A stretch of DNA of 64,000 nt, taken from NCBI GenBank assembly GCA_964016885.1, contig OZ024741.1, forward strand, positions 310,310,001 through 310,374,000, read 5' to 3'. The stretch is from Eledone cirrhosa (taxonomy: Eukaryota). The notes under the pieces are model-generated. The model was not told the origin of the DNA, did not search any database, and saw only the letters and a list, made by a program, of their open reading frames with translations. Both the position numbers and the translations under genes were made by a program. This document shows, piece by piece, positions 15,321-61,102 of the stretch. The first letter of the stretch is position 1. The number at the start of each line of letters is the position of its first letter.

Positions 15321-15334
15321 TATATATATATACG

Positions 15335-20066
<4,732 letters not shown>

Positions 20067-20067
<1 letters not shown>

Positions 20068-40170: not shown

Positions 40171-40766
40171 GCCATTCCCCACAATTTGTTCTTACCTATT
40201 AAAGGAGATTAATAAAACATTTCCAAAAAGATGCACCCTTATTAAAATGAAGGCTTATTGTTGAAATGACTAAAATGGCCTTCTTGACCGAAGATGCGAG
40301 TCAACGTCTTTCGGCATCATTAGGTAGCACAACGGCAAATAAATATATTCTCTATTTCTTTTTCTCTCTTTCTAATCCGATTCAAATAATTATTTGGCAG
40401 TGAATCGATGTTCGCTATTTTTTTTAATGTTTCCATTTGTTTTTATTTCTTTCTCTCACTCTTCTCGTATATTTTGGTGCGTTAAATTTGTGAGGTTCCT
40501 ATCGATGGTTAATAGCATTTATTATTTGTGGTTATATTTCCATTCTAGGATGTATTCCATCATAACAGCACATTCTGCTTCCCAGCAGCATGTATTAAAC
40601 TGTGAATTAATGCCGCGAATGTTTGGGACGAAAAAGTATTTGACTATTGGGTAATCAGGCAATCCAAGCGTAAAATCATCAATGTAGATTAAACAGATCT
40701 TAAATAGAGCTTGGAGCAGATGTTACGTTGGGAGAACATTCGGACTACTATTACTACCACTGACAT

Positions 40767-43700
40767 GTGCGATATGTCTGTTGTCAACTCTACAAGACAA
40801 GGGAGCGGTTAACAACACTATCGCCTCCAGCCTACATCACCACCACTACCGCTACCCTAAAAACAACCAAGAAAAACAACATCAACAGCTTCAAGATAAA
40901 CACTAATAACGGTAGCAGCAGCAACAACAACGGTAGTAACAACAACAACAAAAACAACAAGAACGACAACACCAACAACAAGAGCAACAATGAAAGCAAC
41001 AACAAGCTCAACGGCGGTGTCACATTTGCAGCGGCCGCAGCCAAAACAAGGCGCTTTATTAACGTGGATATCAGCGATAAGGAACGACAGTTGGCCCAGG
41101 GGTGGAAACTAATTAAATGCGAGAAGTCCTGGGCCAACCTAACCACCACGGACGAGAAAATAGCAGCTATGCAAAAGAGGACGGTATACTTTCGATGCAT
41201 TTCAGTGCAAACTCGCAAAGTGGAATTCGCCAGCCAGGCAGAAGTCGAGGCTGCTTTGGAGTGCATCAAGAGTGACATTGAGTACAAAGCAAGGGCCAAG
41301 CAGTTCGTTACCATCTCGGTACTGTTCAAAACCGAGGCCCTTTCTATTAAGCACTCCGTGAACCCCTGCAGAGCAGAACGGATTATTATGCACCCGTCCT
41401 ACATGAGCAAAAGGACAGCAAAGGTCCGCATTCCTAGGATCCCACCAGGAATGAACATACGTTGGTTCTTGGGAGCGTAATTTAGGAGGATACAACCACT
41501 ACCCTCCTAGATATTAAAAAGAGGGAGAGAGGACTGGTCCGGAATGGATTCGGAGATTCTTCTCCAAATGAAACCTAAACAACATCCCGGATTTTGCTCA
41601 CCTGCAGGACGGGACAACGATTCAATTAATCGCTGAGTGAAGAAGGCCGAACTGCTTCGTCTGGGGGGAAGCAACGCATCTGCAAGCCTTCTGCCCTCAG
41701 CTAAAGAATGCAGCGTGTCGCAACTCTCCTTTGCTGCCAACGCCAGTGTCGACAAGGAAGCTTCCATCACCACCACCAACAACAACACCAACAATGACAC
41801 GGGCAGCCCCACCAACAGCAAAAACAGCCGGACCACCACCAACACCGAAACCAACACAAGGGGAAAACGAGGAAAGCTCTCCCACTCCTCCTACCCCTCA
41901 ACATATACACATGGACAAAACCATAAACGGACACACAGACACAGATACACTCACAACCACAGACCCTTTGTCTTCCAGTAGTGAATATGAAGGAAAACCG
42001 AAAAGTGCCAAAACCAAAAGAGAAAATTCACAAAAAAGCCTCCTCAAAACACAAAAACATACACAACAAAAAATATAGACACTACCAACAGAAGAACAAA
42101 TAAACACACAGACACCTGAAATTGCAGACACCACACCTACAACAAACACGATCGTACCCGAAACAACACCAACAAAACCATCATCATCACAGTCACCGAA
42201 ACGAAAACAAATAAAACCACACCAACAAAACATTAAAAACTTCGTGCTAGTCAGAAGGGCCAACGAGAAATTGATGCCTTTCTTAACACGAAGCGAGGAC
42301 ATTCAAACAGATGGGGAGATCTTGGAATTGAAGAATTGTATCTGGTGCGAATGACGCTCGAATATTACAAAGAAATTCGAGAGAGCTTTTCTCAGGACGT
42401 AGGGACTTTTAAAGGGGTTCCCCCCAAAACATCACCAATCATAGAAGTCGAACCACCCGACCTTCACAAGACCCCGGGAAGTAAGTAAACCTCTCTTCTA
42501 TCTTTTAGCTTGCCAACATGCCCATATTAAGAGTAGGAAGCTTGGGCTCACCCTGGAAGAAGGTTCGCCTGCTCAACGACATCAGGTCTCTGGAAATGGA
42601 TGTGATGGCCGTCAGCGAGACCAGGATTTCCGACACGCGTGCACTAGCCGCAATTTTCAACGACTACCAGATCTTCGCATCTGTTAGCAGGCCGGGAATG
42701 GGAGGTGGGGTAGCAGTACTGTTTAGCAAAGGCCTGGATCACGAGATAAGGTCGATCTTTCGGGACCCAGACTGTACTTTCGTGGTCCTGGATGTGAACA
42801 ATAACGAAGGTGGTGCCTTTAGACTGCTCGCCGTCTACTGGGGCCGGCGACCAGACTTCTTTAGGCGCCTGGAAGCCTCTCTGGGTACGTCTCGCCTCTT
42901 AGTGTTAGCGCGGGACTGGAACGGCATCTTAGACGCACGCTGGGATTGTGTGGGAGTAGCTGATAGCACCTAATCAGACAGTTCCAACTGTCTGACAGCT
43001 ACCGACGAGATTTCCCCAATGCGCCAGTGTGGACGTGGACCAAGCGCATAGGGTCGTCTAGATCGTATATCGACGGTATCTTCATTAGGAAAATAGATAG
43101 AAATAGTGTAGGCTGCGCACTTTTTAAAACAGTCGCCTATTCAAATCACAAATTTGTGATCTGTATGGTCGACCTAGATAAAACGCGTAGATTAGGACCT
43201 GGTTACTGGAAGCTGAACATCTCACTTCCGGCACGTAAGGTTTACAGGGACCAGGTCAACAATTTAGTTAAGCAAAAGTTGACAGGGGGCATCGCCAACA
43301 ACAGATGATGGGTGGGGGGTGCTCACAAAAGAGAGATGAGAGTAACTTTGATAGGGTTTAACAAAGAAGTAGCGTTAGAGGAAAATGGAAAGGAAGGGGA
43401 GGTGGTAGATAAGTTAGACGAGGCTATTTGTAGTGGCATTGCAATGGACATGCTAGCGGCGAGAATTGCATTAGACCATTTCTTCAATGCGAAACACGAA
43501 GGTTGCATTGTCAGAGATAAGGCGCGTGCGCTGAGAAACGATGGAACCAAAGCTGTTCGATGGGCCCGCGTGGCGGAGGCGCAGCGTAGTAATAAAACCA
43601 CAATTCGGTCTTTGGCGGACCGAGACGGATAAGAGATAAGCGATTCCAAGCGGAAGTGTGAGGCCTTTCGCCAGCACTTTGCTCGGTTGTTAGGGGAGAG

Positions 43701-46106
43701 TGGCGAGTCAGAGAGAGTAGCGGATTTCAGTCCCTACCTTGACGGCTTGCAGCGCATCTCGACGGTCGACGCTGTGCGCTGCGAAAGGCCGATTACTTCA
43801 GCCGAAATTCAGGACGCCCTTGTCGACTGCATGAGGCGCAAGTCCACCGGTTTGGATGGCCTGCCCTACGGGCTTTACGTAAATATGCCAGACATGCTCC
43901 CGATCTCCTCGAATCACTCTACTGCAACTGGCAGCAAAATGGGAGTATTCCCAGTTCTGTGAGCAGGGGAGTGGTGACGCTGATGAGGAAAGACGAGAAC
44001 AAGAGTGATACAACTTCAGGCCCATAACTCTGCTCAACACAGAGTTTAAGATTTTGGCCAAGGTGTTAGCAAAGAGATTGGCGCTTGTCGTCGAGGATTT
44101 GGTTGGGGAGGCGCAAATTTGCGCAATCCCAGCCAGGTCTATACACGACAATCTCCACCTCATGCGATACATCATAGAGAGGGTAGGGTGTAAACTTGGC
44201 TTCGGTGGGTCACTGATCAATTTAGATCAATCAAAAGCATTCGATAGGTCGACCATCGGTATCTGGAGATTGTCAGAAGCTGGATCGCTGCAATGCACAG
44301 CGGCACACGCTCGGTGGTCAAGGTTAATGGCCACCTCTCGGAACCATTTCGGCTCTCCCGATCGGTCCGTCAAGGGTGCCCTCTCTCTTCCCTTCTGTAC
44401 GTATTGACTCTCGAGCCTTTACTGCGGAAGCTGGAGCTGTTGCAGGGCATCCAGCTCGAACCGGGACGTGGAAAGGCGGTGTCGGCTTATGCGGACGACA
44501 TCACCGTGATGGTGTCGAACACTTTAGAAACCGAGGTGGTCGGCACCTTATTGAAGGAATATGAAAGGTTGACAGGAGCCAAACTTAACCCGGAAAAGTC
44601 AGTGGGCTTACAGCTCGGAACCTGGAGAGGCAAGCCCATGCCGTCCAACAGCGTCGTGGGGCGCTGGACGGACGGACCGGTAAAGTTGCTCGGGGTTTGG
44701 TTCGGACCAGCCCTCCAGGTGGAAAAGAATTGGGACGAGGTAACGAGCAGAGTAGCCAGTCTCACCCAAAAATGGGCTGGGAGGAATCTATCACTGAAAG
44801 CTCGCCTGACCGTTGTGCCTTGATCCCGTCCGCGCCTCATCAAGCTGGAAAGGCTCCTCTTCAAATTCTTGTGGAGGGGACAAGTTCCGTTGGTGAGGTG
44901 GTCCATCTGCTGCCAGGACCCTCTACGCGGAGGGCTGGGCATGCCGTGGCTAATGATGCGCAGGCATGCGTTGAGGCTGCGATATCTCCAGATATTCTGC
45001 CTAAACGGTGAACAGGTGTGGTCACCGTTTATCAGACGGGCCTTTCCGCAGCTCGTTTCTTTGACTGAGCTGCAGTCCTGGGTCAAGAAGAGACCGAGAC
45101 TGGGTGACTGGCACCTGGAATGTTGCCAGGCACTCACTGCCCTCTACCAAGCCGGCAATGCGATCAGTGGAACTTCCATTCTCGAGATCTAAAGAGGATT
45201 AGTGGTGGGCAAGTGTGATGACGCACTCGGAGAAGCTTTGGGCCTCGACGAAGTCGAACTGACCAGTTTGTACCGGAGGGCTTTTGAGCCGGGGACGATG
45301 GACAATTTCCCGAAATCCCTCGCTTGGCAGTGCTACCGGGGGGGGGGGGGGTGGCACTGCCGGTTCGGGATAATCTCTACAGGCACGGAAGTGCTGTAAG
45401 ACGGACCTGCCCAAGATGCTCACAGAACGACGAAACCGTTCTGCACGCACTTGTCCAATGTCTGTGCATTACTGACTTGTGGAGTTATGTCGAACAGCTA
45501 CTGTCGCGTGTGGAACGAATCTGTCTATCGGCCGAGTCCATAGTGAAGATCGACCCGCCGCCTTCCTTAGGTCAGGAAGAGCAGGAAATTTTCCTCTGCC
45601 TGGTGGCAGTTGCCAAAGAGGTTATATGGTGGACCAGATTAAAAGGACTGAAGACAGACACTTTTCTCTTCGGCCAATCCCTCATCAACTTCTTCAAGTT
45701 TCAACTGGAAAGGAAGGTGAGGGTGGAGAGAGAAGTGCTGCCCCCCCCCGTACATTTGCTAAAAGGTGGATGAATGTGGGGAAAATGGCCCGTGTGAATG
45801 GGCCTACTCTGACCATGCGCCTATAGGCTAGCTAACTTGAGGAGAGGGGTGCTCTCCCTGGGTTCCCTAGAAGCGCAGGGTGGTTCAGGATTGGTGGGGT
45901 ACCCGAGTCACACCAGGGTCGTCCACCCCCTATCGGGGAATTTATTTAGTTATATTTATGCATAGTTTATTTTATAATTTTTATATCTTCATTGTTAAAT
46001 TAGTCTTGCCATTGTGCACTTTTACTCGACCTTATTGTAAACCCCCACTGTCCCTGTCTTTGTATTGTCCCCTACATGTCGGCCCTTGTGGCTAATAAAT
46101 GAAATC
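40767..46106 (+). mobile_element. Tx1/L1-clade LINE copy 1, full length but decayed, with (ATT)n tail
   Basis: ORF1 remnants 40767-42488 (Asn-rich, TFAAAA); ORF2 remnants 42518-45826 (SETR, GPGYWKLN, LDQSKAFDR, SVRQGCPLS, YADD, CPRC..ETVLH); ends ggcccttgtggctaataaatgaaatc(att)n. Confidence 0.9.
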
Positions 46107-46121
46107 ATTATTATTATTATT

Positions 46122-47012
46122 GTTCTTTGAGTCTCAGTCATTGATGTTAGTTAACTGGAAAGTTTATTGAAATGAATATCAAGCCACTACCTGCAGCCTC
46201 AGATATTCAGGACGTATCGGAGGGTTCTTGCTGTTCCCAGCAAGCATGCCTTTTGAAGCGTTCCAAAAAGCGTGGCGGGGCCAATTTTCTTTAACCATCC
46301 CTGGAAACTTTTTGAGATAGTACCTAGTGCGCCTATGACAATCGGGACCACTTTGACTTCATCGCAGTTCCAAATCCTTTTTACCTCCAACTTTAAGTCC
46401 TGGTATCGGTTAATTTTCTCCCTCTCCTTCTCTTGCACTCTCGTGTCGAATGGGCAGGCCACATCCACAATCAGGCACAATCTTTTTTCCTTGTCCAAAA
46501 CCACCAGGTCAGGTCTATTGTGTTCCAGTTTCTTGTCCGTCTGTATCCTAAAATCCCACAGCACCTTCACCTGATCGTTTTCTATCACCGACTCTGGCTT
46601 ATGCTCACACCACTTCTCAGAATGTGGTAAATTGTTTACTTTGCATAGGTGCCAGTGGATCACCCTGCCCATCACATCATGTCTCCAGCCTTTATAGTGA
46701 GTCTGGGCTAGGTGTTTACACTCGGATACAATGTGAGCCACAGTCTCCTCTCTCTCTCCACAGATCCTGCTCAGTGGGCTAGCCTCTTCCTTGTAAATAT
46801 GGTATTTCAACCACTTCGTTTTGAGGGCCTGCTCTTGCGCAGCCATTAGCATTCCTTCTGTAGCCTTTTTAAGATCTCCTCTTTTCAACCAGTTCCATGT
46901 CTGTGGATCTCTGAATTCAGTTTTCTCAAAGAAGGTACTATAAAGGGATTTTTCATGAACGCAGCTCTTTCTCCTTGTTGTTATTGAAGGCTGCTCTTTC
47001 TCCTTGTTGTTA

Positions 47013-47013
<1 letters not shown>
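46122..47013 (-). mobile_element. R4/Dong LINE, 5' truncated, flanked by (TAA)n on both sides
   Basis: ORF 46199..46888 is nearly identical to the C-terminus of 53212..56604 (RHD, RPDLV, DVACP); ~25 bp duplication at the 5' junction. Confidence 0.93.
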
Positions 47014-47049
<36 letters not shown>

Positions 47050-47266
47050 GAATGCTATGGTTGACGGAGGGTCGGCTCTGTAAGGTATTGTAAATTTTGA
47101 CCGCTATAACAATTGTAAATTGTTTAAAACTTTAACCAACTTGTAGACAAAAACACCCTCCTCCTCGTGAGAGGGGTCTTTCTGCCCGTTATTTGGCCCT
47201 TCGGGGTTAAATAATCGCCTATTAGGGTTTTGTGCCCAATATTTATTTTAAACAAAAAAAAAGAAC

Positions 47267-49385
47267 ATGGCTACGAAAAAGAATTTTCCTAGGTCACTCC
47301 CACTCATTCCGTCTTCTTCTTCCTCAATCATCACTACAGCAGAGAGAAGATTGTCTCTCTCCCTCCCTTCTCTAAATGTGTCTCTCTCCCTCCCTTCTCT
47401 TTCGCAAGCGACGCCAGAAAAGAAAAATCACGTGCAAAGCGAGCAAGATTTCTCCACGACGACGACGACAACGACGAAAAAGGTGTGCGGGAAATACGAA
47501 AACCCATTTCATTCGTCTGACGTCAGGAATAATAGCAGTAGCAGCCGTAATAACAGCAGCAACAATGACAAGGAAAACAACAGTAGCAGCCGCAACAGCA
47601 TCAGCAGCAGCATAAACGACAACAGCATTAGCAGCAACAACAACAGCAGCAGCAGCAACAACAACAACTACCACAGCACCAGCGGCGGCGGCAGTAGTCG
47701 TAGTACCTGCAGCAACAACAAAAGTAACAGCAGCTCTGACGACAACAACAACAAAAGTAACAGCAGCTCTGACGACAACAACAACAACAGCAGCAGCAAA
47801 GAAAAACCAATTTCATTTGCAGGTATCGCAAAGAACCTGGAAACCATCCTCATAACAAATGAGGAATTAGAGGAAGCGAAGAAGATGGTGACAAAAACTT
47901 GACACCGAGCAATCTGGAAAGCAGCGGAAACATTTTTCGAAACCCAACAGCACTGTACGGTCACGTACCGTACAGTAAGTACAAAATCCCGTAGGGTTGA
48001 AAGAGCCACAGAGGCTCAAATACAAAAAGCCTTGGGGGGTGTGTGGCAGCGGAAAACGCACATCACCCGAGGCAAGAAATATGCCACCGTAGACGTACTT
48101 TTTGCCACACCTCAGGAGGCAAAGGTTCAATCCTTAGTGACCCTAAGGAGCGAGGAAATGGTGTTGGTGCCCTCCTACTGCGGGCAAAAAATTGTGAGGG
48201 TCAAACTGACCCACGTCTCCCCCGAGGAATCGAGGACAAAACAACTGTACTGCAAGTACAGAAAAAAGTAAGAGATGATTGGGTCGGCACCTCCATTGAG
48301 ATGTTAATCCAAACCAACCAGGAGTGCATCGAAGCTATCCCAGATGTGATAGACTTCGATAACGGCACTCAACTGCCCATAAGTGTTGAGGGCAAACGCC
48401 CGAAATGCTTTCGCTGTGGATCGAAGAATCACCTCAGGGCCTTCTGCAACGAGAAGACCCTGAGAAAGGAGAAAACCCCCTCCTTTCGAAACCGGCTCCA
48501 CGGCTACCAGCAACAGGACAAGCGGCAACCAGGAACGATAGGTCCGTGGCACCCATACCCACTCCACGGAAATCAAAAACAGCAGCAGCAGTGGAAATAT
48601 TAACAACAACAACAGCAATACCAAATGCAGCTGCAACAGAGACTCCAGTGCAAACATCACCAACAACAACAAGTGAAAGAGTGGAGCTGGTACCCCTCCC
48701 CGACCTCACAGAATCAGACATGGAGTGTGAGGTGGGAGAGGGATGGCAAAAGGTCGCAAGAAGGCACAAACGCAGAAGCAGCGCATCGTCGCCTTTGAAA
48801 AGGGAGGAAAGAAATGAGAAAAGGGTAAAGTCTACTGCAAAGAGATCCACAGCAGCAACACCACCAACACCATCACCACCCACACCAGCACCACCATCAC
48901 CACCGGCGACAACCCCACCGCCAACAACACCTTCAACACCACCACCACAAGCACCAACATCGCAAACACAACAACAAAACACACACACCCAGCAACAACG
49001 ACAAGAAAATAGCAGAACCACACCCCACCCCCAGAAAAACAAATGCACGGCAATAAACACACACAACAAGAAACTAATGACTTACATAATTGAACACACA
49101 GACATTTCACAACAGGACTACATAATACCAGCACCAATCAAAACGCCAACTAACATAACACTGCTAAAAATAGCACAGAAACAATACACAAACATTAAAA
49201 CGAAATTCCCCAACGCAGTTGGTGATTTCAGGGACCTAGGAGGAACCATCAATCGAAGAGTATATTCAGACATTCTCTTAGAAGAGCCGACGACCAGCCG
49301 AAGGGACGATTCAACGGCCCCTTCACCAGACGATCAAGTGAAAAGGGATGTAAAAACCATCCCTCCTCTACCAAAAGTACGGTAA
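47267..49385 (+). pseudogene. Tx1 ORF1 (gag-like CCHC nucleic-acid-binding protein) with one stop and two frameshifts
   Basis: Ser/Asn-rich N-terminus, SFAGIAK, zinc knuckle CFRCGSKNHLRAFC, Pro/Thr-rich linker, WQKV..RHKRR. Confidence 0.8.
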
Positions 49386-49420
49386 GTGGTCTTTCCCATC
49401 TTTTCCACTCTATTTTAAAC

Positions 49421-52400
49421 ATGACCTCACTCAGAATAGGCAGCATAAATGCGCGTGGCTTGGGGTCGTCATGGAAGCAGGGTCACCTGCTCAACGACCT
49501 CAGGTCACTAAACATAGATGTAGTGGCCATCAGCGAGACCAGAATCTCCGAAGCACGGGCCTTCGCACCGATCTTCGGCGGCTACGATGTGTACGCATCT
49601 CCCAGCCGTCCTGGATCGGGTGGAGGAGTTGCTGTGCTTTTTCGGAGAGGTTTGGATCTCGCCATACGGGCCATCTTCCTGGACCCAGAGGGTAAGCTGG
49701 TGGTGCTGGACGTGACCAGCGGAGACGGGCAAGCTTTCAGGCTAGTGGCCGTCTATGCCCCGACAGGAGCAGGGCGGCCTGATTTCTTCCGGCGTCTGGA
49801 GACCTTTCTTGGAACGTCCCGCTCTTTAGTGTTAGTGGGCGACTGGAACGGGATCTTAGATGCACGGTGGGACTGTGTGGGATTAGCGGATAGGGGTGGA
49901 GGGTGCAAGAGCCTCACCAACCTGCTCAGGCGTTTTGAACTGTCTGACAGGTACCGATTGGATTTCCCGAATGTGCCAATGTGGACTTGGACAAACCGCA
50001 TAGGGTCATCCAGATCATATCTAGATAGAGTATTTTGTAGGGAAATAGATAGGTCTAGCATAGGCTGTCCACAATTCAAGATAGTCAGCTACACGGACCA
50101 CAAATTCGTGACCTGTGTGCTTGACTTAGATAGGCTTCATAGACGAGGACCCGGCTACTGGAAGCTAAACGCGTCCTTACCAGCGCGCAAGGCCTACAGA
50201 GACCGGATTAGCGAACTAGTTAAGCGGGCGTTGACGGGGGCCATCGTCAACAACAAGTGGTGGTTTGCTCTGAAAAGAGCAATTAGAATAGAATCGATTA
50301 GGTTTAGTAAGGCTTTAGCAATAGAGAAAAATAGAGCAGAGGGAGAACTAGTTAGAAAATTAGACGAGGCGCTTAGCAAAGGCATTGCGACCGACGTGCT
50401 TGCGGCGAAATTGGCCCTTGACCAATTCTTCAATGCAAAGCACGAAGGCTGCGTTGTCAGAGCTAGGGTGCGTGCTCTCAGACACGAGGGGACGAAAGCC
50501 GTTCAATGGGCCCGAGTGGCGGAGGCGCGTCGTGGCAACAAAGCCACGATCCGGTCTTTGGTGGACCACGACGGGCGCATGCTACTCGATCCCGGGCAAA
50601 TGTGTGAAGCTTTTCAGCGACACTTCGCTCAGCTGTTCGGGGGCAGCGGGGGGCCGGGTAGAGGGATGGACTTTAGTGTCTACCTCGACGGACTGCCGCG
50701 GCTCTCGGCCACTGAGGCGAAGTGTTGCGAAAAGCCGATAACAGCCGCTGAAGTAAGGGAGGCAATGACTGGCTGCACAAGGGGTAAATCGCCTGGTTTG
50801 GATGGTCTGCCCTATGAACTTTACGTACAGATGCCAGACTTGTTCGGAGGCCTCTTGGCGGACGTCTACTGCAACTGGCAACAGAACGGGAGAATTCCCA
50901 GTTCTGTGAGCCGAGGAGCGGTGGCACTGCTGAGAAAGGATCCGAACAAGGGGGATAACATAGACAATTTCCGGCCCATAACTCTGCTAAACACAGAGTT
51001 CAAGATTTTGGCCAAGTTGCTAGCAAAGAGGTTGGCGCTTGTCGTTGGTGGTCTGGTGGGAGAGGCGCAGACATGCGCCATTCCCGACAGATCCATCCAC
51101 GACAACCTCCACCTCATGCGATACATCATAGAGAGGGTAGCTAAGGAACCTGGCACGGGTGGGTCCTTGATCAATTTAGATCAGTCGAAAGCTTTCGATA
51201 GGGTCGACCATCGTTACCTAGCGGCAGTCCTGAGGGCGGCTGGCTTTGGGCCCGTCTTCAGAGGCTGGATCGCTGCCATGCACAGCGACATCTGCTCTGT
51301 GGTGAGAGTGAACGGTCACCTGTCGGAACCGTTCAACATCATGCGCTCGGTCCGCCAAGGATGTCCCCTCTCGTCCCTCTTGTACGTATTGACTCTCGAG
51401 CCATTACTGCACAAACTGGAGACGTTGAGGGGAGTCCCGCGCGAACTAGGATGCGGAAGATCCGTGTCAGCATATGCGGACGATGTCACCGTAGTGGTGT
51501 CGAACGCCAAACACATCGAGGCGATTGGCACTACACTAAGAGAATACGAAGCGGTGACAGGAGCAATGATCAACCAGGAAAAGTCAGTGGGCCTGCAGCT
51601 CGGCACCTGGAGAGGCAGGTCCATGCCGTCCAACAGCGTCGTCGGGCGCTGGACGGACGGACCGGTTAAATTGCTAGGGGTCTGGTTCGGTCCGGACCTC
51701 CAGACGGACAAAAACTGGGACGAAGTGACGAGCAGGGTGGCTTCTCTCACCCAGAAATGGGCCGAGAGGAAGCTATCCCTGAAAGGTCGAGCGGAGGTGG
51801 CTAACGCGTACATCGCGTCTGTCATCTGCTACCGCCTAACCGTCGTACCTTGTCCTAAGCCTCGCCTGACTGCGCTGGAGCGTTTGCTCTTTCGCTTTTT
51901 GTGGAAGGGACGTGCTCCGATGGTCAGGCGGTCCATCTGTTGTCAACACCCGCTACGTGGAGGGCTGGGCATGCCGTGGCTGATGATGCGCAGGCACGCG
52001 CTCAGGCTACGACATCTCCACCTCTTCCTCGACGGTGATCAGGTGTGGTCGCCGTTTGCTAGGCGCGTATTTCCCCAGCTCGTTTCCTTGACGGAGCTGC
52101 AGTCCTGGGTCAAGCGAAGACCGAGAGGGAGCGCCTGGAGACTGGAATGTCTTCAGGCGCTCACAGCCCTCGACCAATCGAGCAATGTGATCGGTGGAAA
52201 CTCCACCTCGGCGTTCTATAGAGGAGTAGTGGAGGGGAAGAGCGACGACGTACTTGGGGAAACTCTAGGCGTCGACGAAAATCAACTAGCCAATCTCTTC
52301 GGAAGAACTTTCGGGCCGGGGCCTATGGACAACTTCCAGAAATCTCTGGCCTGGCAGTGCTACCGAGGAGCCTTGCCAGTTCGGGATAAACTCTACAGGC

Positions 52401-52840
52401 ATGGAGGTGCCGTCAGCCGGGCATGTCCGAGATGCGCGCAGGGCGACGAAACCGTCCTGCACGCACTCGTCCAGTGTCCGAAAATTGCTGACTTGTGGGT
52501 TTATGTCGAACACCTGCTGTCGCGTTTAGGACGGATCCGGCTATCATCTGAGTCCATCGTGAGGATTGCCCCGCCCTCCTCCTTTAGCCGGGAAGGGCAG
52601 GCAGTTTTTATCTGCCTGGTGGCCATGGTGAAAGAGATAGTATGGTGGACACGTTTGAAAGGGCTGAAGACGAGCACTTACCTCTTCGGTGATGCTCTGA
52701 TTGACTTTTTCAAATTTCATTTGAAAAGGAAAATCAGAGTAGAGAGGGAAGTGCTCTCTTCCCAGCATTTTGTTGAAAGATGGGTGAGAGAAGCAAGAAT
52801 GGCCCGAGTGAATGGGCCTACTCTGAGTATATATCTGTAA
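49421..52840 (+). CDS. Tx1/L1-clade ORF2: APE endonuclease, reverse transcriptase and C-terminal zinc finger (intact, 1139 aa)
   Basis: SINARGL, SETR, VYAP, GDWN, SYLDRV, TDH (APE); SPGLDG, FRPITLLN, LDQSKAFDRV, SVRQGCPLS, YADD (RT); CPRC...ETVLHALVQC. Confidence 0.96.
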   Translation: MTSLRIGSINARGLGSSWKQGHLLNDLRSLNIDVVAISETRISEARAFAPIFGGYDVYASPSRPGSGGGVAVLFRRGLDLAIRAIFLDPEGKLVVLDVTSGDGQAFRLVAVYAPTGAGRPDFFRRLETFLGTSRSLVLVGDWNGILDARWDCVGLADRGGGCKSLTNLLRRFELSDRYRLDFPNVPMWTWTNRIGSSRSYLDRVFCREIDRSSIGCPQFKIVSYTDHKFVTCVLDLDRLHRRGPGYWKLNASLPARKAYRDRISELVKRALTGAIVNNKWWFALKRAIRIESIRFSKALAIEKNRAEGELVRKLDEALSKGIATDVLAAKLALDQFFNAKHEGCVVRARVRALRHEGTKAVQWARVAEARRGNKATIRSLVDHDGRMLLDPGQMCEAFQRHFAQLFGGSGGPGRGMDFSVYLDGLPRLSATEAKCCEKPITAAEVREAMTGCTRGKSPGLDGLPYELYVQMPDLFGGLLADVYCNWQQNGRIPSSVSRGAVALLRKDPNKGDNIDNFRPITLLNTEFKILAKLLAKRLALVVGGLVGEAQTCAIPDRSIHDNLHLMRYIIERVAKEPGTGGSLINLDQSKAFDRVDHRYLAAVLRAAGFGPVFRGWIAAMHSDICSVVRVNGHLSEPFNIMRSVRQGCPLSSLLYVLTLEPLLHKLETLRGVPRELGCGRSVSAYADDVTVVVSNAKHIEAIGTTLREYEAVTGAMINQEKSVGLQLGTWRGRSMPSNSVVGRWTDGPVKLLGVWFGPDLQTDKNWDEVTSRVASLTQKWAERKLSLKGRAEVANAYIASVICYRLTVVPCPKPRLTALERLLFRFLWKGRAPMVRRSICCQHPLRGGLGMPWLMMRRHALRLRHLHLFLDGDQVWSPFARRVFPQLVSLTELQSWVKRRPRGSAWRLECLQALTALDQSSNVIGGNSTSAFYRGVVEGKSDDVLGETLGVDENQLANLFGRTFGPGPMDNFQKSLAWQCYRGALPVRDKLYRHGGAVSRACPRCAQGDETVLHALVQCPKIADLWVYVEHLLSRLGRIRLSSESIVRIAPPSSFSREGQAVFICLVAMVKEIVWWTRLKGLKTSTYLFGDALIDFFKFHLKRKIRVEREVLSSQHFVERWVREARMARVNGPTLSIYL

Positions 52841-53125
52841 ATTAAAGGTGGAAAACTGGGAGAGGGCACTTGCCTTGGTGGTCAGGGTCATTGTGGCTTT
52901 TTACTGGGCTTTCTCCACAAATGTCCCTCCGAAGTCTCCCCCCTATTGGGGAATTTTTCATTGTTATTTTCATTGTTATTTTTGTTACATCCTCTGTTTT
53001 TGTTTTTTACACGCAGAAATGCCCATTTGTACCGTCCTGCATTGTCCTGCAATGTCCTTAATGTCTACTTTATGTAAACCCTTGTGGTTAATAAAGAAAT
53101 CATTATTATTATTATTATTATTATT

Positions 53126-56100
53126 GTCATTGTTATTCCTTGAATCTCAGTCATTGATGTTGGTTAACTGGAAAGTCCGTTGGATTGAATATCAAGCCAC
53201 TACCTGCAGCCTCAGATATTCAGGACGTATCGGAGGGTTCTTGCCGTTCCAAGCAAGCATGCCTTTTGAAGCGTTCCAAAAAGCGTGAAGGGGCCGATTT
53301 TCTTTAACCATCCCTGGAAACCTTTGGAGATAGTCCCCAGTGCGCCTATGACAATCGGGATCACTTTGACTTCATGGCAGTTCCAAATCCTTTTCACCTC
53401 CCACTTTAGGTCCTGGTATCGGTTAATTTTCTCCCTCTCCTTCTCTTGCACTCTCGTGTCGAACGGGCAGGCCACATCCACAATCAGGCACGATCTTTTT
53501 TCTTTGTCCACAACCACCAGGTCAGGTCTATTGTGTTCCAGTTTTTTGTCCGTCTGTATCCTAAAATCCCACAGCACCTTCACCTGACTGTTCTCCATCA
53601 CCGCCTCTGGCCTATGCTCATACCATTTCTCAGAATGTGGTAGATTGTTTACTTTGCACAGGTGCCAGTGGATCACCCTGCCCATCACATCGTGTCTCCA
53701 GCCCTTATAGTGGGTCTGGGTTAGGTGTTTACACTCGGACACAATGTGAGCCACAGTCTCCTCTCTCTCTCCACAGATCCTGCACAGCGGGCTAGCCTCC
53801 TCCTTGTAGATATGGTGCTTCAACCACTTCGTTTTGAGGGCCTGCTCCTGCGCAGCCATTAGCATTCCTTCTGTAGCCTTTTTGAGGTCTCCTCTTCTCA
53901 ACCAGTTCCATGTCTGTGGATCTCTAAATTCAGTTTTCTCAAAGAAGGTACTATGAAGGGATTTTCCCTTAAGGCTGCTCTTCCTCCTTGATGTTATTTC
54001 CTCCTTGGGTATCCCCTGGCCTACTGTCCCCTCCTTCAGTACAGCTCTGAGCATTGGCTCCTTACTATAGGTCACGTATTTGTATAGGTTGTTTTTCTCC
54101 ATCTGAACACAGTCCTCTATGCTGATAAGACCTCTTCCACCCTCAGATCTCCTTAGGTAGAGTCTATCGACATCACTCCTCTTGTGGAACATGTTGTAGA
54201 TAGTCAATAGCTTCCTAGTCTTCCTATCCATTTCTTTTTGTTCAGCAACATTCCATCTCAGAATTCCCGCACTGTACCTAATAATAGACACAGCTCGGGA
54301 ATTTACTACGCTTATGGCATTTCTGTTGTTCAGATGTGACTTCAATACGCTCCTTACTCTCCGAATGTATTCAGTTCTTAACAATTCCTTCATTTTTTTG
54401 TTCTTTATGCCATCAGCCTCCAGAACGCCCAAATACTTGTATCCTTCCTCAGAGTCAATTTCCTTTATCATCTCACCTGTTGGTATCTGGATCCCGTTAC
54501 TTCTGCTCAACCTACCCCTCCTCATCACAATGACTCCACATTTACCAATACCAAACTGCATACATATATCACTGCTGAAAATACGGACAGTGTCAACAAG
54601 CACATCCAACTCCTTCTCACTTTTCCCGAAGAGCTTAAGATCGTCCATGAAGAGGAGGTGATTGATGGTAAGCTCTCCCCTTCCCAACTTGTATCCTGCT
54701 CTCACTTTTCGCAGCATAATGGTCAAGGGCATCAGGGCAAGGACAAACAACAGAGGGGACAGGCTATCTCCCTGGAAGATACCTCTCTTGATCTTCACGC
54801 TTCCCAAGGATACTCCAGTTGATGTCAACTCTGTCTCCCAGGACCCCATACTCCTGCCCAGCAACTGTCTGATGTTATCTGCCACCCTGAAGATCTCCAG
54901 GCTTTTGGTGATCCAGGAATGAGGCACCATGTCAAATGCCTTTCTGTAGTCTATCCATCCCATGGCAAGATCAGTGTGTCTCCTCCTGCAATTCCCCATT
55001 ACCATCTTATCAATAAGCAACTGGTCCTTTGTACCACGTGACTTCTTTCGGCATCCTTTCTGTTCGTCCGGCAACAAGTTGTTTGTGTGGAGGTGATGGT
55101 AGATTTCCTCAGACACAATGCTCGTCAACAGTTTCCACATTACGGGCAGACATGTGATAGGTCTATAGTTGGTAACATCATTACCCTTGATTCGGTCTTT
55201 CATTATCAGAACTGTGGTACCTTTTGTCAACCACTCTGGCACCTCACCCGACACCAAGCAGTCATTGAACATGGCCGTCAGCTTCGGGTGGAGGGATGTT
55301 AAATGTTTAATCCAATACCCCTGCACACCATCTGGGCCTGGTGATTTCCAGTTGGTTAGTTTTTTGGCTTGCCCCTTAAGAGTTTCAACTGTGATACTCA
55401 AATCAGTCTGTTGCTGTGCCTGCTCACCGATCTCCCTCTGTACTGTCTCAATCCACCCTGCCTGGGCATTGTGTCTAACATCCTGCTCCCATATTCCTCT
55501 CCAGAATGTTTTAGCTTGTTCCGCCCCAGGGATCAAGTCGTTGCCTCTTTCTTTCCCCTCAAGCTGTCCAAACAGCATCTTCTGGTTGTTGTCGAACATG
55601 CGGTTCTGTTTATACTGACTGACTCTGTTCTCGTATCGCCTGATTTTGGCACTCTTTGCTACAATGCGTTGCTTCAATTCCTCTATGATAATATTTAGCT
55701 TTTTACTCCTAGTTTTGTATTTTATTTCCATTCTATTTTTAGTGCCTATGTTTTTTAGTGTCCCATTCAGTAGTGACTCAAGCTTTCCTATGTCATTTCT
55801 CATTTCCCCGATTTGCCCACTCAGTCGCTTCTTCCACCACGGCTCTGCTCTTTCTTGTCTGTTGTTTCCTCTCGCTTTTATACCAAGTAGTTTCCTCACC
55901 GTATTTGCTGTTGCTTTGAGGATATTGTTGCACTGGTGAAGACTCCTCGCCTCAAGGTATGGGATGACTTTGTTTACCTTAGCTGTTGTTTCTTTTAACT
56001 TTTTCCTGTCTACAAATCTTAGGTTCATAGGTCTCCCACTATCATTGTTCAACTCATCTACCACTAAATTTAGGATGTCAACCGAATCTTGTCCTAGCCC

Positions 56101-56740
56101 GTCAGCATTCATCTCCTCAGTGGCCGTATCTCTGTTCCAGGTATTATTTATCTCAGTATTCAGATCATTGTCTGCTTCGGGTGGTTCCTCCGTTCTCAGG
56201 ACCTCCTCACCTTCATTTCCCGCCGGCTCGCTTGTCTGGCATACTACACCCGCCATCTCCAAGCCATTCTCTCTGCTCAGTTCCTCCAGTTCCAGCTCGC
56301 TTATCCACCCATTAGTTCTTATTACCCGAGCCTGCCCGGCCAATTTTTGTTCATCTAATTTAAATAAACCAATCTCGTTCCAGATGTTATGCATCCGTCT
56401 CCTGTAGCCCCTCTCCTTGGGGTTACTTTTCAGGTAGCATTGCATAACAGTTCTATTCAATTCTTTCGTCCAGTTGGTTCTGGCCCCTTTCCTTCTTCTT
56501 CTTCCTCCAACATCAGCAGTATTTGGTTGACAGTCAGGTTCCTGCTGCTGAGCCAGGGGGCACCTGTTGGGTGAGAGTCTGTCACATGACGTTCTAGTCT
56601 CCATTTCACCGTTATTCGAACTATTTATGTTCGATATTTAAACACTCTTATCGAGGATTGGCGAATGTATGTTTACATAGCCATCTGTGGATCCGCCATC
56701 CCACTTGGCCCTTGTGTGGCATTATCACCACGCTGTATAC
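53126..56740 (-). mobile_element. R4/Dong-clade LINE, full length, with (TAA)n tail
   Basis: Single intact ORF; short 3' UTR ending in aataataat; 5' boundary approximate. Confidence 0.93.
53212..56604 (-). CDS. R4/Dong ORF: RT, CCHC knuckle and restriction-like endonuclease (intact, 1130 aa)
   Basis: WT.ELN..VM.CY..S....GYRRRM..IW (R4-type N-terminus), NWKSPGPDG, YRPITCL, WIDYRKAFD, GIFQGDSLSPL, FMDD, CRICG...ETVAHIVSEC, RHD, RPD, DVACP, EK..RY. Confidence 0.96.
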   Translation of the reverse strand: METRTSCDRLSPNRCPLAQQQEPDCQPNTADVGGRRRRKGARTNWTKELNRTVMQCYLKSNPKERGYRRRMHNIWNEIGLFKLDEQKLAGQARVIRTNGWISELELEELSRENGLEMAGVVCQTSEPAGNEGEEVLRTEEPPEADNDLNTEINNTWNRDTATEEMNADGLGQDSVDILNLVVDELNNDSGRPMNLRFVDRKKLKETTAKVNKVIPYLEARSLHQCNNILKATANTVRKLLGIKARGNNRQERAEPWWKKRLSGQIGEMRNDIGKLESLLNGTLKNIGTKNRMEIKYKTRSKKLNIIIEELKQRIVAKSAKIRRYENRVSQYKQNRMFDNNQKMLFGQLEGKERGNDLIPGAEQAKTFWRGIWEQDVRHNAQAGWIETVQREIGEQAQQQTDLSITVETLKGQAKKLTNWKSPGPDGVQGYWIKHLTSLHPKLTAMFNDCLVSGEVPEWLTKGTTVLIMKDRIKGNDVTNYRPITCLPVMWKLLTSIVSEEIYHHLHTNNLLPDEQKGCRKKSRGTKDQLLIDKMVMGNCRRRHTDLAMGWIDYRKAFDMVPHSWITKSLEIFRVADNIRQLLGRSMGSWETELTSTGVSLGSVKIKRGIFQGDSLSPLLFVLALMPLTIMLRKVRAGYKLGRGELTINHLLFMDDLKLFGKSEKELDVLVDTVRIFSSDICMQFGIGKCGVIVMRRGRLSRSNGIQIPTGEMIKEIDSEEGYKYLGVLEADGIKNKKMKELLRTEYIRRVRSVLKSHLNNRNAISVVNSRAVSIIRYSAGILRWNVAEQKEMDRKTRKLLTIYNMFHKRSDVDRLYLRRSEGGRGLISIEDCVQMEKNNLYKYVTYSKEPMLRAVLKEGTVGQGIPKEEITSRRKSSLKGKSLHSTFFEKTEFRDPQTWNWLRRGDLKKATEGMLMAAQEQALKTKWLKHHIYKEEASPLCRICGEREETVAHIVSECKHLTQTHYKGWRHDVMGRVIHWHLCKVNNLPHSEKWYEHRPEAVMENSQVKVLWDFRIQTDKKLEHNRPDLVVVDKEKRSCLIVDVACPFDTRVQEKEREKINRYQDLKWEVKRIWNCHEVKVIPIVIGALGTISKGFQGWLKKIGPFTLFGTLQKACLLGTARTLRYVLNI

Positions 56741-57173
56741 GGACACACATAAACAAACAAACACACGGGCAGAAAGGGCCCCAAAAATGAATAAGCATAA
56801 GTTTCATTGTAATGTAGTATTCGAATGTCTGACTTAGTTTTTGTTTTTTAAGTTTTACTTTTTCCCCCCTCTTCTCTGTCCGTCCGCCTGCTTCTCTCTT
56901 CATTCTTATTTTCTTTACGTTTTTGGGGTTTCTTTTTTTGTTTTTGTTTTTCTCTGTTTTTCTCGTTTTTTACTGTTGTTGCTGTGCTGCTTTTGTTGTT
57001 TGTTTTTTCTTTTTTCTTTTGAGTCTATCTATATATTTTGATGCCTTCCTCTTTGTTAGTAGTAGGAATTCTATAATGTGGAAGTGGTAGCCAGCAGAGA
57101 CTGGCGGCGTTGGCGATACTGAGACAGTGGTGGTGGTGATGTCGATACAGAGGCAGTGGTGGCGGTGATGCGA

Positions 57174-57760
57174 CCGTATTACTGTAGTGATGGTGCTGTA
57201 GCGGTGGCAGCAGCAGTGAAGGAGTCAGGGGGTGGTGGCGGCGGTGATGGGATAGTGGTGGTAATGATGGCCGTAGTGAGCGGTGGCGGTGAAGGTGAAA
57301 ATGCTGTTGTGTTTAGTGTACACAGATGATGGGGTGGGTGGTGTATCTAGTTTCTGGTGTTGGTGAGTTTCGCTGTCCTATATAGTGTAGCCAGAGGAGA
57401 GGAGGGGGGGGGGGGGGTTCTTCTTCTTCCATTTATAGCCATTTTATTTTTATTTGGATATACAGTGTACAATACAAAGTTGAATATTTGAATATTTGAG
57501 CCGTATTACTGTAGTGATGGTGCTGTAGCGGTGGCAGCAGCAGTGAAGGAGTCAAGGGGTGGTGGCGGCGGTGATGGGATAGTGGTGGTAATGATGGCCG
57601 TATCGAGCGGTGGCGGTGAAGGTGAAAATGCTGTTGTGTTTAGTGTACACAGATGATGGGGTGGGTGGTGTATCTAGTTTCTGGTGTTGGTGAGTTTAGC
57701 TGTCCTATATAGTGTAGCCAGAGGAGAGGAGGGGGGGTTCTTCTTCTTCCATTTATAGCC

Positions 57761-57765
<5 letters not shown>
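57174..57765. repeat. ~270 bp near-identical direct duplication (57174-57445, 57501-57765)
   Basis: ccgtattactgtagtgatgg...ccatttatagccattt occurs twice with a ~55 bp spacer. Confidence 0.92.

Positions 57766-57818
<53 letters not shown>
57764..57818. repeat. (TTA)n microsatellite
   Basis: Direct observation. Confidence 0.97.
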
Positions 57819-58102
57819 TGCATTTATCTTGCTTTATGTTCATACGAGTTATCACCAAGTCACAACCAGTGACCTCAAGAGACAACAAGGTCCCCCATGT
57901 TCAAGAAAGAACATACATATTCACACATGCATCCTTAGTGTTTAGACTTGTGATGTACTTATATTGACAGGATCTTCCTTAGTATATGGGCAGTTCCCAT
58001 TAGTACTATCTTTTGTATTTCTCCTATACGCGGGTTTCCTGGGATTTGCGATAAGTAGTCGTTAGACCCCTTAGGTATCATTCCCAGAGCAACTACAACC
58101 AC
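57819..58102 (-). mobile_element. R4/Dong 3' fragment of a second family, flanked by (TAA)n on both sides
   Basis: VVVALGMIPKG...IQKIVLMGTAHILRKILSI* followed by a 3' UTR. Confidence 0.82.
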
Positions 58103-58122
58103 TATTATTATTATTATTATTT

Positions 58123-60882
58123 GTGATCCGTAAGACAGATTCATAGAGAAGGACCTGGTTACTGGAAGCTGAACGCGTCTTTCCCGGCGCGCAAAGCCTA
58201 CAGAGACGAGATTAACGTATTAGTTAAGCGGGCGTTGACGGGAGCGGTCGTCAACAACAGGTAATGGTTTGCCCTGAAAAGGGCAATTAAAGTAGAATCG
58301 ATTAGGTTTAGCAGATGTGTGAGACTTTTCAGAAGCACTTTGCTGAAGTGTTCGGGATCAGCGGCGGGCCAGATCGGGGATTGGACTTCAGTGCCTGGAA
58401 GTACCTCGACGGACTGCCTCGGCTCTCGACGACGGCAGCACCGTGTTTCGAAAAACCATCAACAGCCGGTGAAATACGGGAAGCGATGGCTAACTGCACG
58501 AAGGGTAAATCCCCAGGTTTGGATGGCCAGCCCTACGAACTTTATGCCTTTATGCCAGACTTGTTCGGTGACCTCTTGGCAGACGTCTACTGCAACTGAA
58601 TGGGAGCATTCCCAGTTTTGTGAGCCGGAGAGCGATGCCGCTGCTGAGAAAAGACCCGAACAACGGGTATATTATCGATAACTTCAGGCCCATAACTCTG
58701 CTAAACGCAGAGTTCAAGATTTTGGACAAGGTGTTAGCAACGGGGTTGGCACTTGTCGTCGAGGGTCTGGTGGTAGAGGCGCAGATATGCACCATTCCGG
58801 ACAGATCCATACATGACAACCTCCACCTCATGCGATGCATCATAAAGAGGTTGGTTAAGGAACCTGGCACGGGTGGGGCCCTGATCAACTTGGATCAATC
58901 CAAAGCATTCGATAGGGTGGACCATCGGTACATGGCGGCGGACTTCAAGGCAGCCGGTTTCGAGCCCGTTATCAGGGGTTGGATAGCGGCGATGTATAGC
59001 GACATATGCTCAGTTGTGAGTGTGAACGGTCACCTGTCGCAGCCTTTCAGCATCATGCGCTCGGTCTACCAGGGTTGTCCCTTCTGGTCCCTCTTGTACC
59101 TATTGGCTCTCGAGCCGTTACTGCACAAACTGAGGGTCATGAGGGGCGTCCCACGCGAACTAGGATTCGGGAAATCCGAGTCGGCTTACACCGACGACAT
59201 CACCGTGTTGGTGTTGTGCAACAGACACGTCCAGTTGCTCGGCACCGCTCTCAAGGAATACGAAGCGGTGACAGGAGCAAATATAAATCAGGAAAAGTCG
59301 GCATCCGGAGAGGCAAGTCCATGCCATCCGACAGCGTCGTGGGGGCGTTGAACGGACGGACGGAACGGTTAAATTGGTCGGGGTCTGGTTCGGACCGGAC
59401 CTCCAGATGGAGAAAAACTGAGCGAGGTGACGAGCAGGGTGGCCTCCCTCACCCAGAAATGGGCTGAGAGGAAGCTGTCCCTGAAAGGCGGGGCGGAGGT
59501 GGCGAATGCGTACATCGCGGTGCGCATTCGGCGGTGAGGCGGTAACAGATAACGGATATGTGCATCACATCCGTTATCTGTTACCGCCCCACCGTCGTCC
59601 CTTGCCCCGCCCCACTCTCACCAAAATGGAGCGCCTCCTCTTCCGCTTTTTTTGGAAGGGACGCGCTACCATGGTGAGACGATCCATCTGCTGTCAACAC
59701 CCGTTGCATGGAGGATGGGGCATGCCATGGCTGATGATGCGCAAACATGCGCTGAGACTGTGGCATCTCTGGTACTTCCTTGACGGTGAACAGGTGTGGT
59801 CGCCGTTCGACAGGTACGTTTTCCCACAGCTCGTCTCATTGACGGAACTGCAGTCCTGGGTCAGAAAAAGACCGAAGGATAGCGCTTGGAAACTGGAATG
59901 TCTCCAGGCGCTCACTGCCCTCTGCCAGCTGGGCACCAGTATCGGTGGAACATCCACCTCGGCGTTCTATAGAGGACTAGTGGAGGGGAAGAGCGACGAC
60001 GTTCTCGGAGAGATCCTGGGTGTCGAAGAAAATCAGCTGTCTGCTCTCTTCCTGAGAACTTTCAGGCCAGGGCCTATGGATAACTTCCAGAAATTCCTGC
60101 CTGGCAGTGCTACCGGGGAGCTTTGCCGGTTCGAGATAAGCTCTACAGGCACGGAAGTGCCGTCAGCCGGGCCTGTCCGAGGTGCGCGCAGAGCGACGAA
60201 ACCGTCGTGCACGCACTCGTTCAGTGCCCGAGCATTGATGATTTGTGGAGCTATGTCGAACAGTTGCTGTCGTGTGTAGGACTGATCCGGTTATCGACTG
60301 AGTCCATTGTGCAGATGGTTTCGCCGTCTTCCTTCGAGGAGGAAGGGCAGGCGGTTTTCATCTGCCTGGTGGCCATGGTGAAAGAGATTGTGTGGTGGAC
60401 AAGGTTGAAAGGGTTAAAGACAGACACTTTCCTCTTCGGCGAATCGCTGATTAACTTTTTCAAGTTTCACTTGAAGAAGAAAATCAGGGTGGAGAGGCAA
60501 GTGCTGTCTTCTAGCAAGTTTGTTGAAAGGTGGGTGAATGTAGCGAGAATGGTCCGAGTGAATATACGCTTGTAGTTTGAGGAATGGGAAAAAATTGAGA
60601 GAAGGCGCTTGCCCTGTTGGTCAGGGTGGCCGTGGTCTTTTGTGTGGTTTTCGCCACGAGTAACCCTCGGAGGTTTCCCCCCTATTGGGGAATTTTTCAT
60701 TGTTCGAATTTTCATTTTTATTGTTTATATATATAATGTTTCTGTCTTTTTTTCTTTTTCGTTTCTTATATAAATAATAAAATTATTTACACGCACAAAA
60801 CCCACATCGTACCGTCCTGTACCTTCCTGTGCCGCCTGTAATGTTTTTCTTGATGTCAGCCCTTGTGGCCAATAAAGAAATC
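58123..60882 (+). mobile_element. Tx1/L1-clade LINE copy 3, 5' truncated and decayed, with (ATT)n tail
   Basis: Starts just after (TTA)n, near GPGYWKLN; internal deletion near 58314; frameshifted RT; ends gcccttgtggccaataaagaaatcatc(att)n. Confidence 0.92.
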
Positions 60883-60904
60883 ATCATTATTATTATTTAT
60901 AGAT

Positions 60905-61102
60905 AAGGGCGGTGGATTGGCAGTTTCGGTAGAGGGTCGGACGCCATGTTTTGCAGCAAAGAGTTACGGCTCTTTATGGTCTGAGTTCAAATCCCGCCGA
61001 GGTTAACTTTGCCTTTAATCTTTAGGGGGTCGATAAAATAAAGTACCAGTAATACACTGGAATAATTGCTGGCGTTGTGCCAAAAGTAGAAACAATTATT
61101 AT
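60905..61102 (+). mobile_element. SINE family A, full length
   Basis: A-box-like tggcagtttcggt, B box gagttcaaatcc, conserved core and tail; the sequence attatttatagataa flanks both ends (possible target-site duplication). Confidence 0.85.

Follow-up and report, generated by a model that had tools for sequence, protein, structure and literature searches.

Two unrelated types of long interspersed nuclear element (LINE) use a single microsatellite, (ATT)n, in the genome of Eledone cirrhosa, and they do so in opposite orientations as a genome-wide pattern. One is a Tx1-like LINE with an apurinic/apyrimidinic-type endonuclease (APE) and the other is a Dong/R4-like LINE with a restriction-like endonuclease (RLE). 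The window analyzed here is a stretch of 64,000 nt (assembly GCA_964016885.1, contig OZ024741.1, positions 310,310,001 to 310,374,000 of the forward strand), and it holds an array of three Tx1-like LINEs (+), three Dong/R4-like pieces (−), and one short interspersed nuclear element (SINE), all joined by (ATT)n (Table 1). We consider it highly probable that this stack arose by independent insertions at (ATT)n junctions, with Tx1 oriented along the ATT strand and Dong along the TAA strand. A single microsatellite was likely the starting point, as every insertion divides the repeat and probably increases its total length. An earlier, sequence-only reading of the window had proposed that the two LINEs share this niche, each regenerating its target, and that one element's tail may be the other's target. 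The shared niche holds across the genome, regeneration of the target has support from one set of paralogous sites, and the proposal about tails has to be recast.

Genome-Wide Use of One Repeat

A search of 3.0 Gb found 7,105 exact Tx1 ends and 9,515 exact Dong ends, along with 87,594 right boundaries of perfect (ATT)n runs of at least 18 nt (44,770 + 21,449 + 21,375); reversed controls gave 87,593 left boundaries. Such runs have a density of only ~1.5e-5 per base and strand. A run of at least 16 nt nevertheless precedes all 30 best matches to the 5′ head of Tx1 subfamily B, the window's own copy included, and with so low a density this enrichment, which the sequence-only reading had anticipated, is not due to chance. 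On the 3′ side, ATT comes after 22 of the first 30 exact Tx1 ends, TATC or CATC after 6, and other sequence after 2. Next after the 22 ATT-followed ends comes a Dong-type 3′ end in 9 and another Tx1 in 4. All 30 sampled Dong 3′ ends abut the repeat, and the repeat also flanks 13 of the 17 Dong 5′ junctions whose homology ended inside the locus. Wherever sampled, Tx1 copies read along the ATT strand and Dong copies along the TAA strand; a reversed Tx1 lies near one census array (L287). An APE element and an RLE element thus occupy one (ATT/TAA)n niche with opposite polarity, as had been suspected from the window.

Identity of the Elements

The full-length Tx1-like copy of the window (subfamily B) carries an uninterrupted second open reading frame, ORF2 (49421-52837, 1139 aa), with APE (49421-50170), reverse transcriptase (RT), and zf-RVT domains (Pfam PF03372, PF00078, PF13966), and its best PDB match is L1 ORF2p (E 4e-52). 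ORF1 is broken and survives as a remnant with a CCHC motif. The 3′ end contains a hairpin with a CTTGT loop, plus an AATAAA. At pair 3 of the hairpin, subfamily B has A-T, and subfamilies A and C and the TATC lineage discussed below have G-C; the GGYY variation noticed by the earlier reader corresponds to the 3′ arm of this hairpin. Features of the Tx1 group are present, namely ORF1 and ORF2 with an N-terminal APE, an RT, and a C-terminal zinc knuckle, together with target specificity and target site duplications (TSDs). Homologue and cluster look-ups for the Tx1-like protein gave no named Tx1 reference, and the clade name is best taken as a label drawn from architecture, targeting, and the earlier reader's call. 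Other kinds of Tx1 5′ head and ORF1, at least three in number, are also present (L012, L014, L015, L376), and L376, in which a different head sits on a subfamily-B ORF2, suggests 5′ end swapping. On contig 1, Tx1 3′ ends lie ~6.05 kb apart in one orientation at 55.42-55.45, 56.17-56.18, and 57.09-57.10 Mb; judged by these coordinates, they are probably head-to-tail tandems of full-length copies.

Dong elements have a single RT-CCHC-RLE ORF. The Dong-like ORF of the window (56604-53215, − strand, 1130 aa) is likewise single and has an RT, a CCHC motif, and a PD-(D/E)xK-type RLE without an APE. It shows the motifs CRIC..H..S.C and RPD..VVD..E.EK, and its best PDB match is R2, with a second aligned stretch that spans the PD..D region. 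Insertion into (TAA)n on the sense strand also agrees with the Dong clade. The homologues of this protein include no named Dong or R4 reference, and Dong, too, would serve as a label, chosen here from architecture and targeting. Several distinct Dong 5′ ends exist. A 281-bp duplication in the 5′ region of the window copy (57174-57454, 57501-57773) recurs in L142 and L360 and is part of the subfamily. The piece at 57819-58102 belongs to a second Dong-like family with about 40% amino acid identity to the first. A fixed 284-bp nonautonomous element was ruled out for this piece, given that among 29 copies whose match begins at its first base, 28 extend upstream, one of these running into simple repeat. 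A scan with the Rfam models returned no ribozyme or tRNA at 56600-61200, only four sub-threshold unrelated matches; a 5′ hepatitis delta virus-like ribozyme is described for Bombyx mori Dong (PMC3774820).

The Repeat after Tx1 Is Chiefly Duplicated Target

The sequence-only reading took the (ATT)n that follows Tx1 as a tail made by the element. Junctions at imperfect sites indicate instead that it is chiefly TSD. Genome-wide, 265 Tx1-B ends have a repeat that is interrupted after ATTA, and 30 of these loci were examined. The alignment start was seen in 14, and after removal of three internal deletions 11 junctions remained. Six of them (L301, L308, L312, L315, L317, L322) have an exact TSD of 7-19 bp that runs from the element's last base with no added repeat. 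The flanks of L308 are themselves repeats.

A sister Tx1 lineage leads to the same view. It forms a separate clade in the tree and has the same terminus, with at least 1,316 exact ends followed by TATCTA, and yet its copies are flanked on both sides by (TATC)n, with TSDs of 12-16 bp at L104, L107, L122, and L128 and none at L106. Relative to window copy B, the sister lineage is ~72% identical in ORF2 nucleotides and 62% in APE amino acids (L120, L104, L107, L122, L124, L128; contig 1). Because the terminus is shared and the repeat is not, the Tx1 flank follows the target of the lineage. Copies of the TATC lineage also occur repeatedly within a ~60-bp minisatellite that contains CTATC (L125-L127), and downstream of a related copy, L011, the repeat is (CT)n, which may be a third target.

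Dong differs in this respect. AAC or GAC variants recur up to ~15 nt into the Dong 3′ repeat at unrelated loci, which suggests that the repeat end of Dong is templated.

Filled Sites Hold More Repeat than Empty Ones

Evidence on the fate of the target comes from a LINE that we take to be RTE from the start of its APE. This element carries an (ATT)n run in its 5′ untranslated region (UTR), with at least 402 exact copies, and the run serves as the same site many times over. Among 48 of these sites (L330-L379), 40 are empty (one with a short SINE tail piece was scored as such) and 8 are occupied, 6 by Dong types and 2 by Tx1. Empty sites contain 22-81 nt of repeat (median 34.5; length-weighted mean 41 nt). 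The six sites with a single insertion contain 53-93 nt when both sides are summed (median 80; Mann-Whitney p 1e-4). Two occupied sites fell outside the comparison, one with two Dong copies and one with a tandem Tx1 that had no right flank within 10 kb. Filled sites therefore hold about twice the repeat of empty paralogous sites, in agreement with the earlier proposal that insertion regenerates or extends the target.

Clustering on Earlier Insertions

In a census of 89 (ATT)n arrays (90 loci, one duplicate dropped), the left neighbor is Tx1 in 18, Dong in 16, a CR1-type LINE in 11-12, the SINE in 7, the RTE-type LINE in 6, and none in 31. An evenly spaced sample of 590 kb has Tx1 on the left of 5 of 18 arrays. 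Against the census, both families favor sites next to existing insertions, as the self-extending array of the sequence-only reading would have it: a Tx1 or a Dong is the left neighbor of 22 of 30 Tx1 heads (p 0.001) and 20 of 30 Dong ends (p 0.01) but of only 34 of 89 arrays. This clustering on earlier insertions is about 1.8-fold and favors neither family as the partner. Left of the 30 Dong ends stand 10 Tx1 and 10 Dong, compared with the 18 and 16 of 89 in the census (Fisher p 0.21 and 0.12), so an excess of tail-to-tail Tx1/Dong pairs is not significant. By the same count, Dong does not choose Tx1 ends over Dong ends, and alternation is no general rule. The idea that one element's tail provides the other's target better fits the CR1-type LINE, which ends in (ATT)n of its own.

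Other Users and Sources of the Repeat

The CR1-type LINE, presumably CR1 from its C-terminal motifs, has the repeat upstream at 4 of 21 alignment starts, three of which come from duplication of its own end, and several of the other 17 starts are alignment ends rather than true junctions. Short duplications of the 3′ end are seen in several copies (L138, L210, L281, and others). At L047, a Tx1-B head sits within a CR1-type (ATT)n tail. CR1-type tails and the RTE-type 5′UTR likely seed new (ATT)n targets.

A and B boxes recognized by eye give the SINE a tRNA-like appearance; with 38 near-full-length copies, it accounts for ~2.6% of the bases in the 590-kb sample. Its 3′ hairpin has a CTTGT loop in 105 of 129 ends, on a stem of TGGC with GCCA or GCCT. 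The Tx1 hairpin has a stem of AACC/GGTT or AGCC/GGCC, with the same loop in all Tx1 lineages here, a feature that the Tx1 search pattern required. A TSD of at least 12 bp that starts with ATTAT borders 10 of 51 SINE ends (shuffled mean 0.29). Judging from the hairpin and the sites, the SINE is likely mobilized by Tx1 machinery.

Organization of the Window

When re-derived, the coordinates of the sequence-only reading and its picture of Tx1(+) and Dong(−) elements joined by (ATT)n came out unchanged. The three Tx1 copies end at 46106, 53101, and 60885 in CCCTTGTGGYYAATAAA(T)GAAATC and then (ATT)n, with one extra ATC in copy 3 (C). Dong 3′ ends start directly past the Tx1-side repeat at 46122 and 53126, and the Dong pieces at 46122-47012 and 57819-58102 have repeat on each side. 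Where Tx1 sequence resumes after (ATT)n, 47050 is a true 5′ head and ~58123 the start of a 5′-truncated copy. Strict alternation of the two families was an overstatement, since two Dong pieces adjoin at 57763-57818. The array runs on to 61112 through the SINE. The 5′ boundary of Tx1-A (~40767) is approximate and was placed at a decayed ACT/ATT run. At its 5′ junction, the Dong piece at 46122-47012 has a 29-bp tandem duplication (found with TRF).

Table 1. Elements and (ATT)n junctions of the array, in window coordinates
Feature	Position	Strand	Basis or remark
Tx1-like LINE, subfamily A, degraded; ORF2 remnants 42518-45740	40767..46106	+	tblastn, tree; at most 90.5% identity to other fetched copies
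(ATT)5 joining Tx1-A 3′ end to Dong 3′ end	46107..46121	+	
Dong/R4-like family 1 variant a, 5′-truncated	46122..47012	−	91.6% aa to Dong ORF residues 870-1130; best other copy 97.4%
(ATT)12 joining Dong 5′ side to Tx1-B head	47013..47049	+	
Tx1-like LINE, subfamily B, full-length	47050..53101	+	Pfam, PDB match, genome-wide repeated head; 99.3% over 3.7 kb to another copy
(ATT)8 joining Tx1-B 3′ end to Dong 3′ end	53102..53125	+	
Dong/R4-like LINE family 1 variant b, complete ORF, long 5′ region	53126..57762	−	99.2% across whole length to L142
(ATT)18 between two Dong-type elements	57763..57818	+	
Second Dong/R4-like family, 5′-truncated 3′ end	57819..58102	−	38-43% aa to family 1; other copies extend upstream
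(ATT)6 junction	58103..58121	+	
Tx1-like LINE, subfamily C, 5′-truncated, degraded	58123..60885	+	tblastn, tree; best other copy 93.9%
SINE	60907-61094	+	18-bp TSD beginning ATTATT at 60889-60906 and 61095-61112

A tree of 52 ORF2 3′ segments places the window's Tx1 copies in three subfamilies, each with 100/100 support. Together with the two Dong variants and the second Dong family, this result bears out the view that the elements inserted independently and were not spread by segmental duplication. The nearest fetched relatives match the outer copies at 90.5% and 93.9% identity and the inner copies at 97.4-99.7%. Older copies on the outside and younger ones on the inside are expected if the stack grew from inside.

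Elsewhere in the window are two Penelope-like RT/GIY-YIG pieces recognized by eye (15300-17912, 28621-30914) and a Pif1 helicase fragment (19998-20525; Pfam PF21530). Two pairs of inverted repeated segments ~10-12 kb apart (2574-2610/14721-14769, with an internal (ATT)n run, and 4558-4918/14017-14119) are possibly the terminal repeats of a large element. The 3′ region of an RT element is present in three related copies (86-90%), one of them inverted (32077-32779, 36525-37213, 39465-40171).

Mechanism and Competing Explanations

In target-primed reverse transcription, the first nick falls on the strand complementary to the element. By this rule, the initial cut would be made in the TAA strand by the Tx1 APE and in the ATT strand by the Dong RLE. 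A staggered second cut would then give rise to the TSD and turn one run into two. Dong would prime on its templated (UAA)n end and so add templated repeats, and Tx1 would prime on at most a few AUU bases. Slippage could lengthen the split runs again, and longer and more numerous runs would be hit more often by any family, in a rich-get-richer fashion. CR1-type tails and the RTE-type 5′UTR would supply seeds, and the SINE would ride the Tx1 machinery. A shared niche together with splitting and lengthening of the repeat would explain stacked arrays like the 20-kb one without a special partnership. Whether (ATT)n forms a self-amplifying niche for a whole guild of retroelements, in which CR1 and RTE seed, Tx1 and Dong cut opposite strands and multiply, the SINE rides Tx1, and a sister Tx1 lineage has moved to (TATC)n, is a broader question on which we are evenly divided.

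Several observations weigh against insertion into a self-renewing (ATT)n target. Some Tx1 5′ junctions have no repeat (L091, L093, and L114, for example), the 30 heads that do all come from one young subfamily, and 4 of the 17 Dong 5′ junctions are without repeat (deletions or other sequence). Clean TSDs are absent at 5 of the 11 short-tail Tx1-B junctions, and L097 has just 4 nt of repeat on its 3′ side. The gain in target is based on six sites from a single paralogue family (5 Dong, 1 Tx1), and the measuring rules differed slightly between empty and filled sites. Longer arrays draw insertions in any case, and slippage may have added length later on. The census and the Dong sample overlap, both having been drawn from the start of contig 1, which makes the p-values approximate. 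Finally, junction statistics and TSDs were observed, whereas nicking, priming, and slippage are inferred from target-primed reverse transcription.

Of the other explanations, a specific partnership would have Dong prefer Tx1 3′ ends and Tx1 prefer the 5′ side of Dong, to give truly alternating arrays. The neighbors of Tx1 lend this idea some credit: a Dong 5′ side precedes 13 of 30 Tx1 heads compared with 16 of 89 arrays (p 0.012), and in the census Tx1 is on the left of 5 of the 12 arrays that have Dong on their right and of 13 of the 77 that do not (p 0.06). However, the median array next to a Dong 5′ side measures 47.5 nt, compared with 22-29 nt where the neighbor is Tx1, CR1, SINE, or unassigned, and this greater length could by itself yield the excess of Tx1 after Dong. 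Dong ends adjoin both families alike, as noted above, head-to-tail Tx1 pairs are common (9 of the 30 heads), and the window itself has a Dong-Dong junction. We regard a partnership as improbable. Still less probable is that Tx1 bears a long (ATT)n tail of its own, as the CR1-type LINE does, which creates targets for Dong while the 5′ repeats reflect accumulation in repeat-rich regions. Long (ATT)n does stand at most Tx1-B ends (median 39 nt in 17 copies), and a templated Tx1 end of one or two units is compatible with the data. This explanation is largely refuted by the 30 of 30 Tx1 heads that sit exactly at the end of a run, by imperfect sites where the 3′ flank is TSD without added repeat (L308, L317, L322, L301), and by the sister lineage, which has the same terminus but (TATC)n at both ends.

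The two similar Tx1/Dong junctions that lie 7 kb apart (91% over 921 bp) could raise the suspicion of an assembly artefact, or that one Tx1/Dong pair was duplicated, whether segmentally or in tandem. The Tx1 copies of the window are just 72-77% identical to one another, and their placement in three subfamilies refutes duplication. With Dong pieces from two variants and a second family, and with the same type of junction at many unrelated loci, we give this explanation the least credence of all. Independent insertion at (ATT)n junctions remains the reading that we prefer.

Comparison with Known Systems

R1 and R2 in 28S rDNA are an APE and an RLE element in one multicopy niche. They differ from the present pair in that they use distinct sites within a gene, insert in the same orientation, and do not multiply their target on insertion. 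Another parallel is found in TRAS1Bm and SART1Bm of B. mori, two site-specific LINEs that insert in opposite directions in one simple repeat, the (TTAGG)n of telomeres, and whose endonuclease is reported to read two to three units (PMC7265360). Both of those are APE elements confined to telomeres, whereas the shared microsatellite in the present case is dispersed, with ~88,000 runs, and its users are one APE and one RLE element. Microsatellite-specific Tx1 elements are described as Kibi in (TC)n, Koshi in (TTC)n, and crocodilian elements in (TTCC)n/(TTTC)n (PMC4494074, PMC3812793); as here, they are Tx1-clade APE elements whose repeat unit varies among related lineages. The targets in E. cirrhosa are different repeats, (ATT)n and, for the sister lineage, (TATC)n; Figure 3 or the supplements of PMC4494074 may list such targets.

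For the RLE partner, Dong of B. mori, DongAg, and DongBg are described with a (TAA)n target, a snail among the hosts (PMC3812793), within the R4 lineage (PMC3774820). The Dong-like elements here share that target and the single RT-CCHC-RLE ORF; what differs is that two Dong-like families plus Tx1 are found on it. In Octopus vulgaris, Dong-R4 and L1-Tx1 are both given as recently active in Table 1 of PMC13282606, the accessible part of which mentions neither targets nor nesting, and an octopus Dong is also mentioned in PMC9115989. A SINE has been tied to a target-specific Tx1 before, when SINEU was inferred from a shared target preference to be mobilized by Tx1-Mar (PMC4494074). The SINE of E. 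cirrhosa looks tRNA-like and shares the 3′ hairpin loop of Tx1, and its sites are short ATTAT sequences instead of a Mariner element. No paper on Tx1 at (ATT)n or (TATC)n, or on Tx1/Dong cotargeting, emerged from a literature search that did not extend to Repbase or most subscription journals.

Implications

Two unrelated LINE endonuclease types, each with thousands of copies, converge on one dispersed microsatellite. A target that appears to multiply on insertion offers a simple route to long stacks of LINEs and to genome growth, and it reverses the usual reading of such repeats as tails. The paralogous RTE site provides a built-in assay of empty versus filled states. Sister lineages on ATT and TATC make target switching by an APE testable. 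Caution is called for with ATT markers in this genome, as they often coincide with retroelement junctions. If the self-amplifying niche holds true, about four in ten ATT runs would be junctions that Tx1 or Dong created, and the two APEs that use ATT and TATC, at 62% identity, would be a natural system for mapping how repeat specificity changes.

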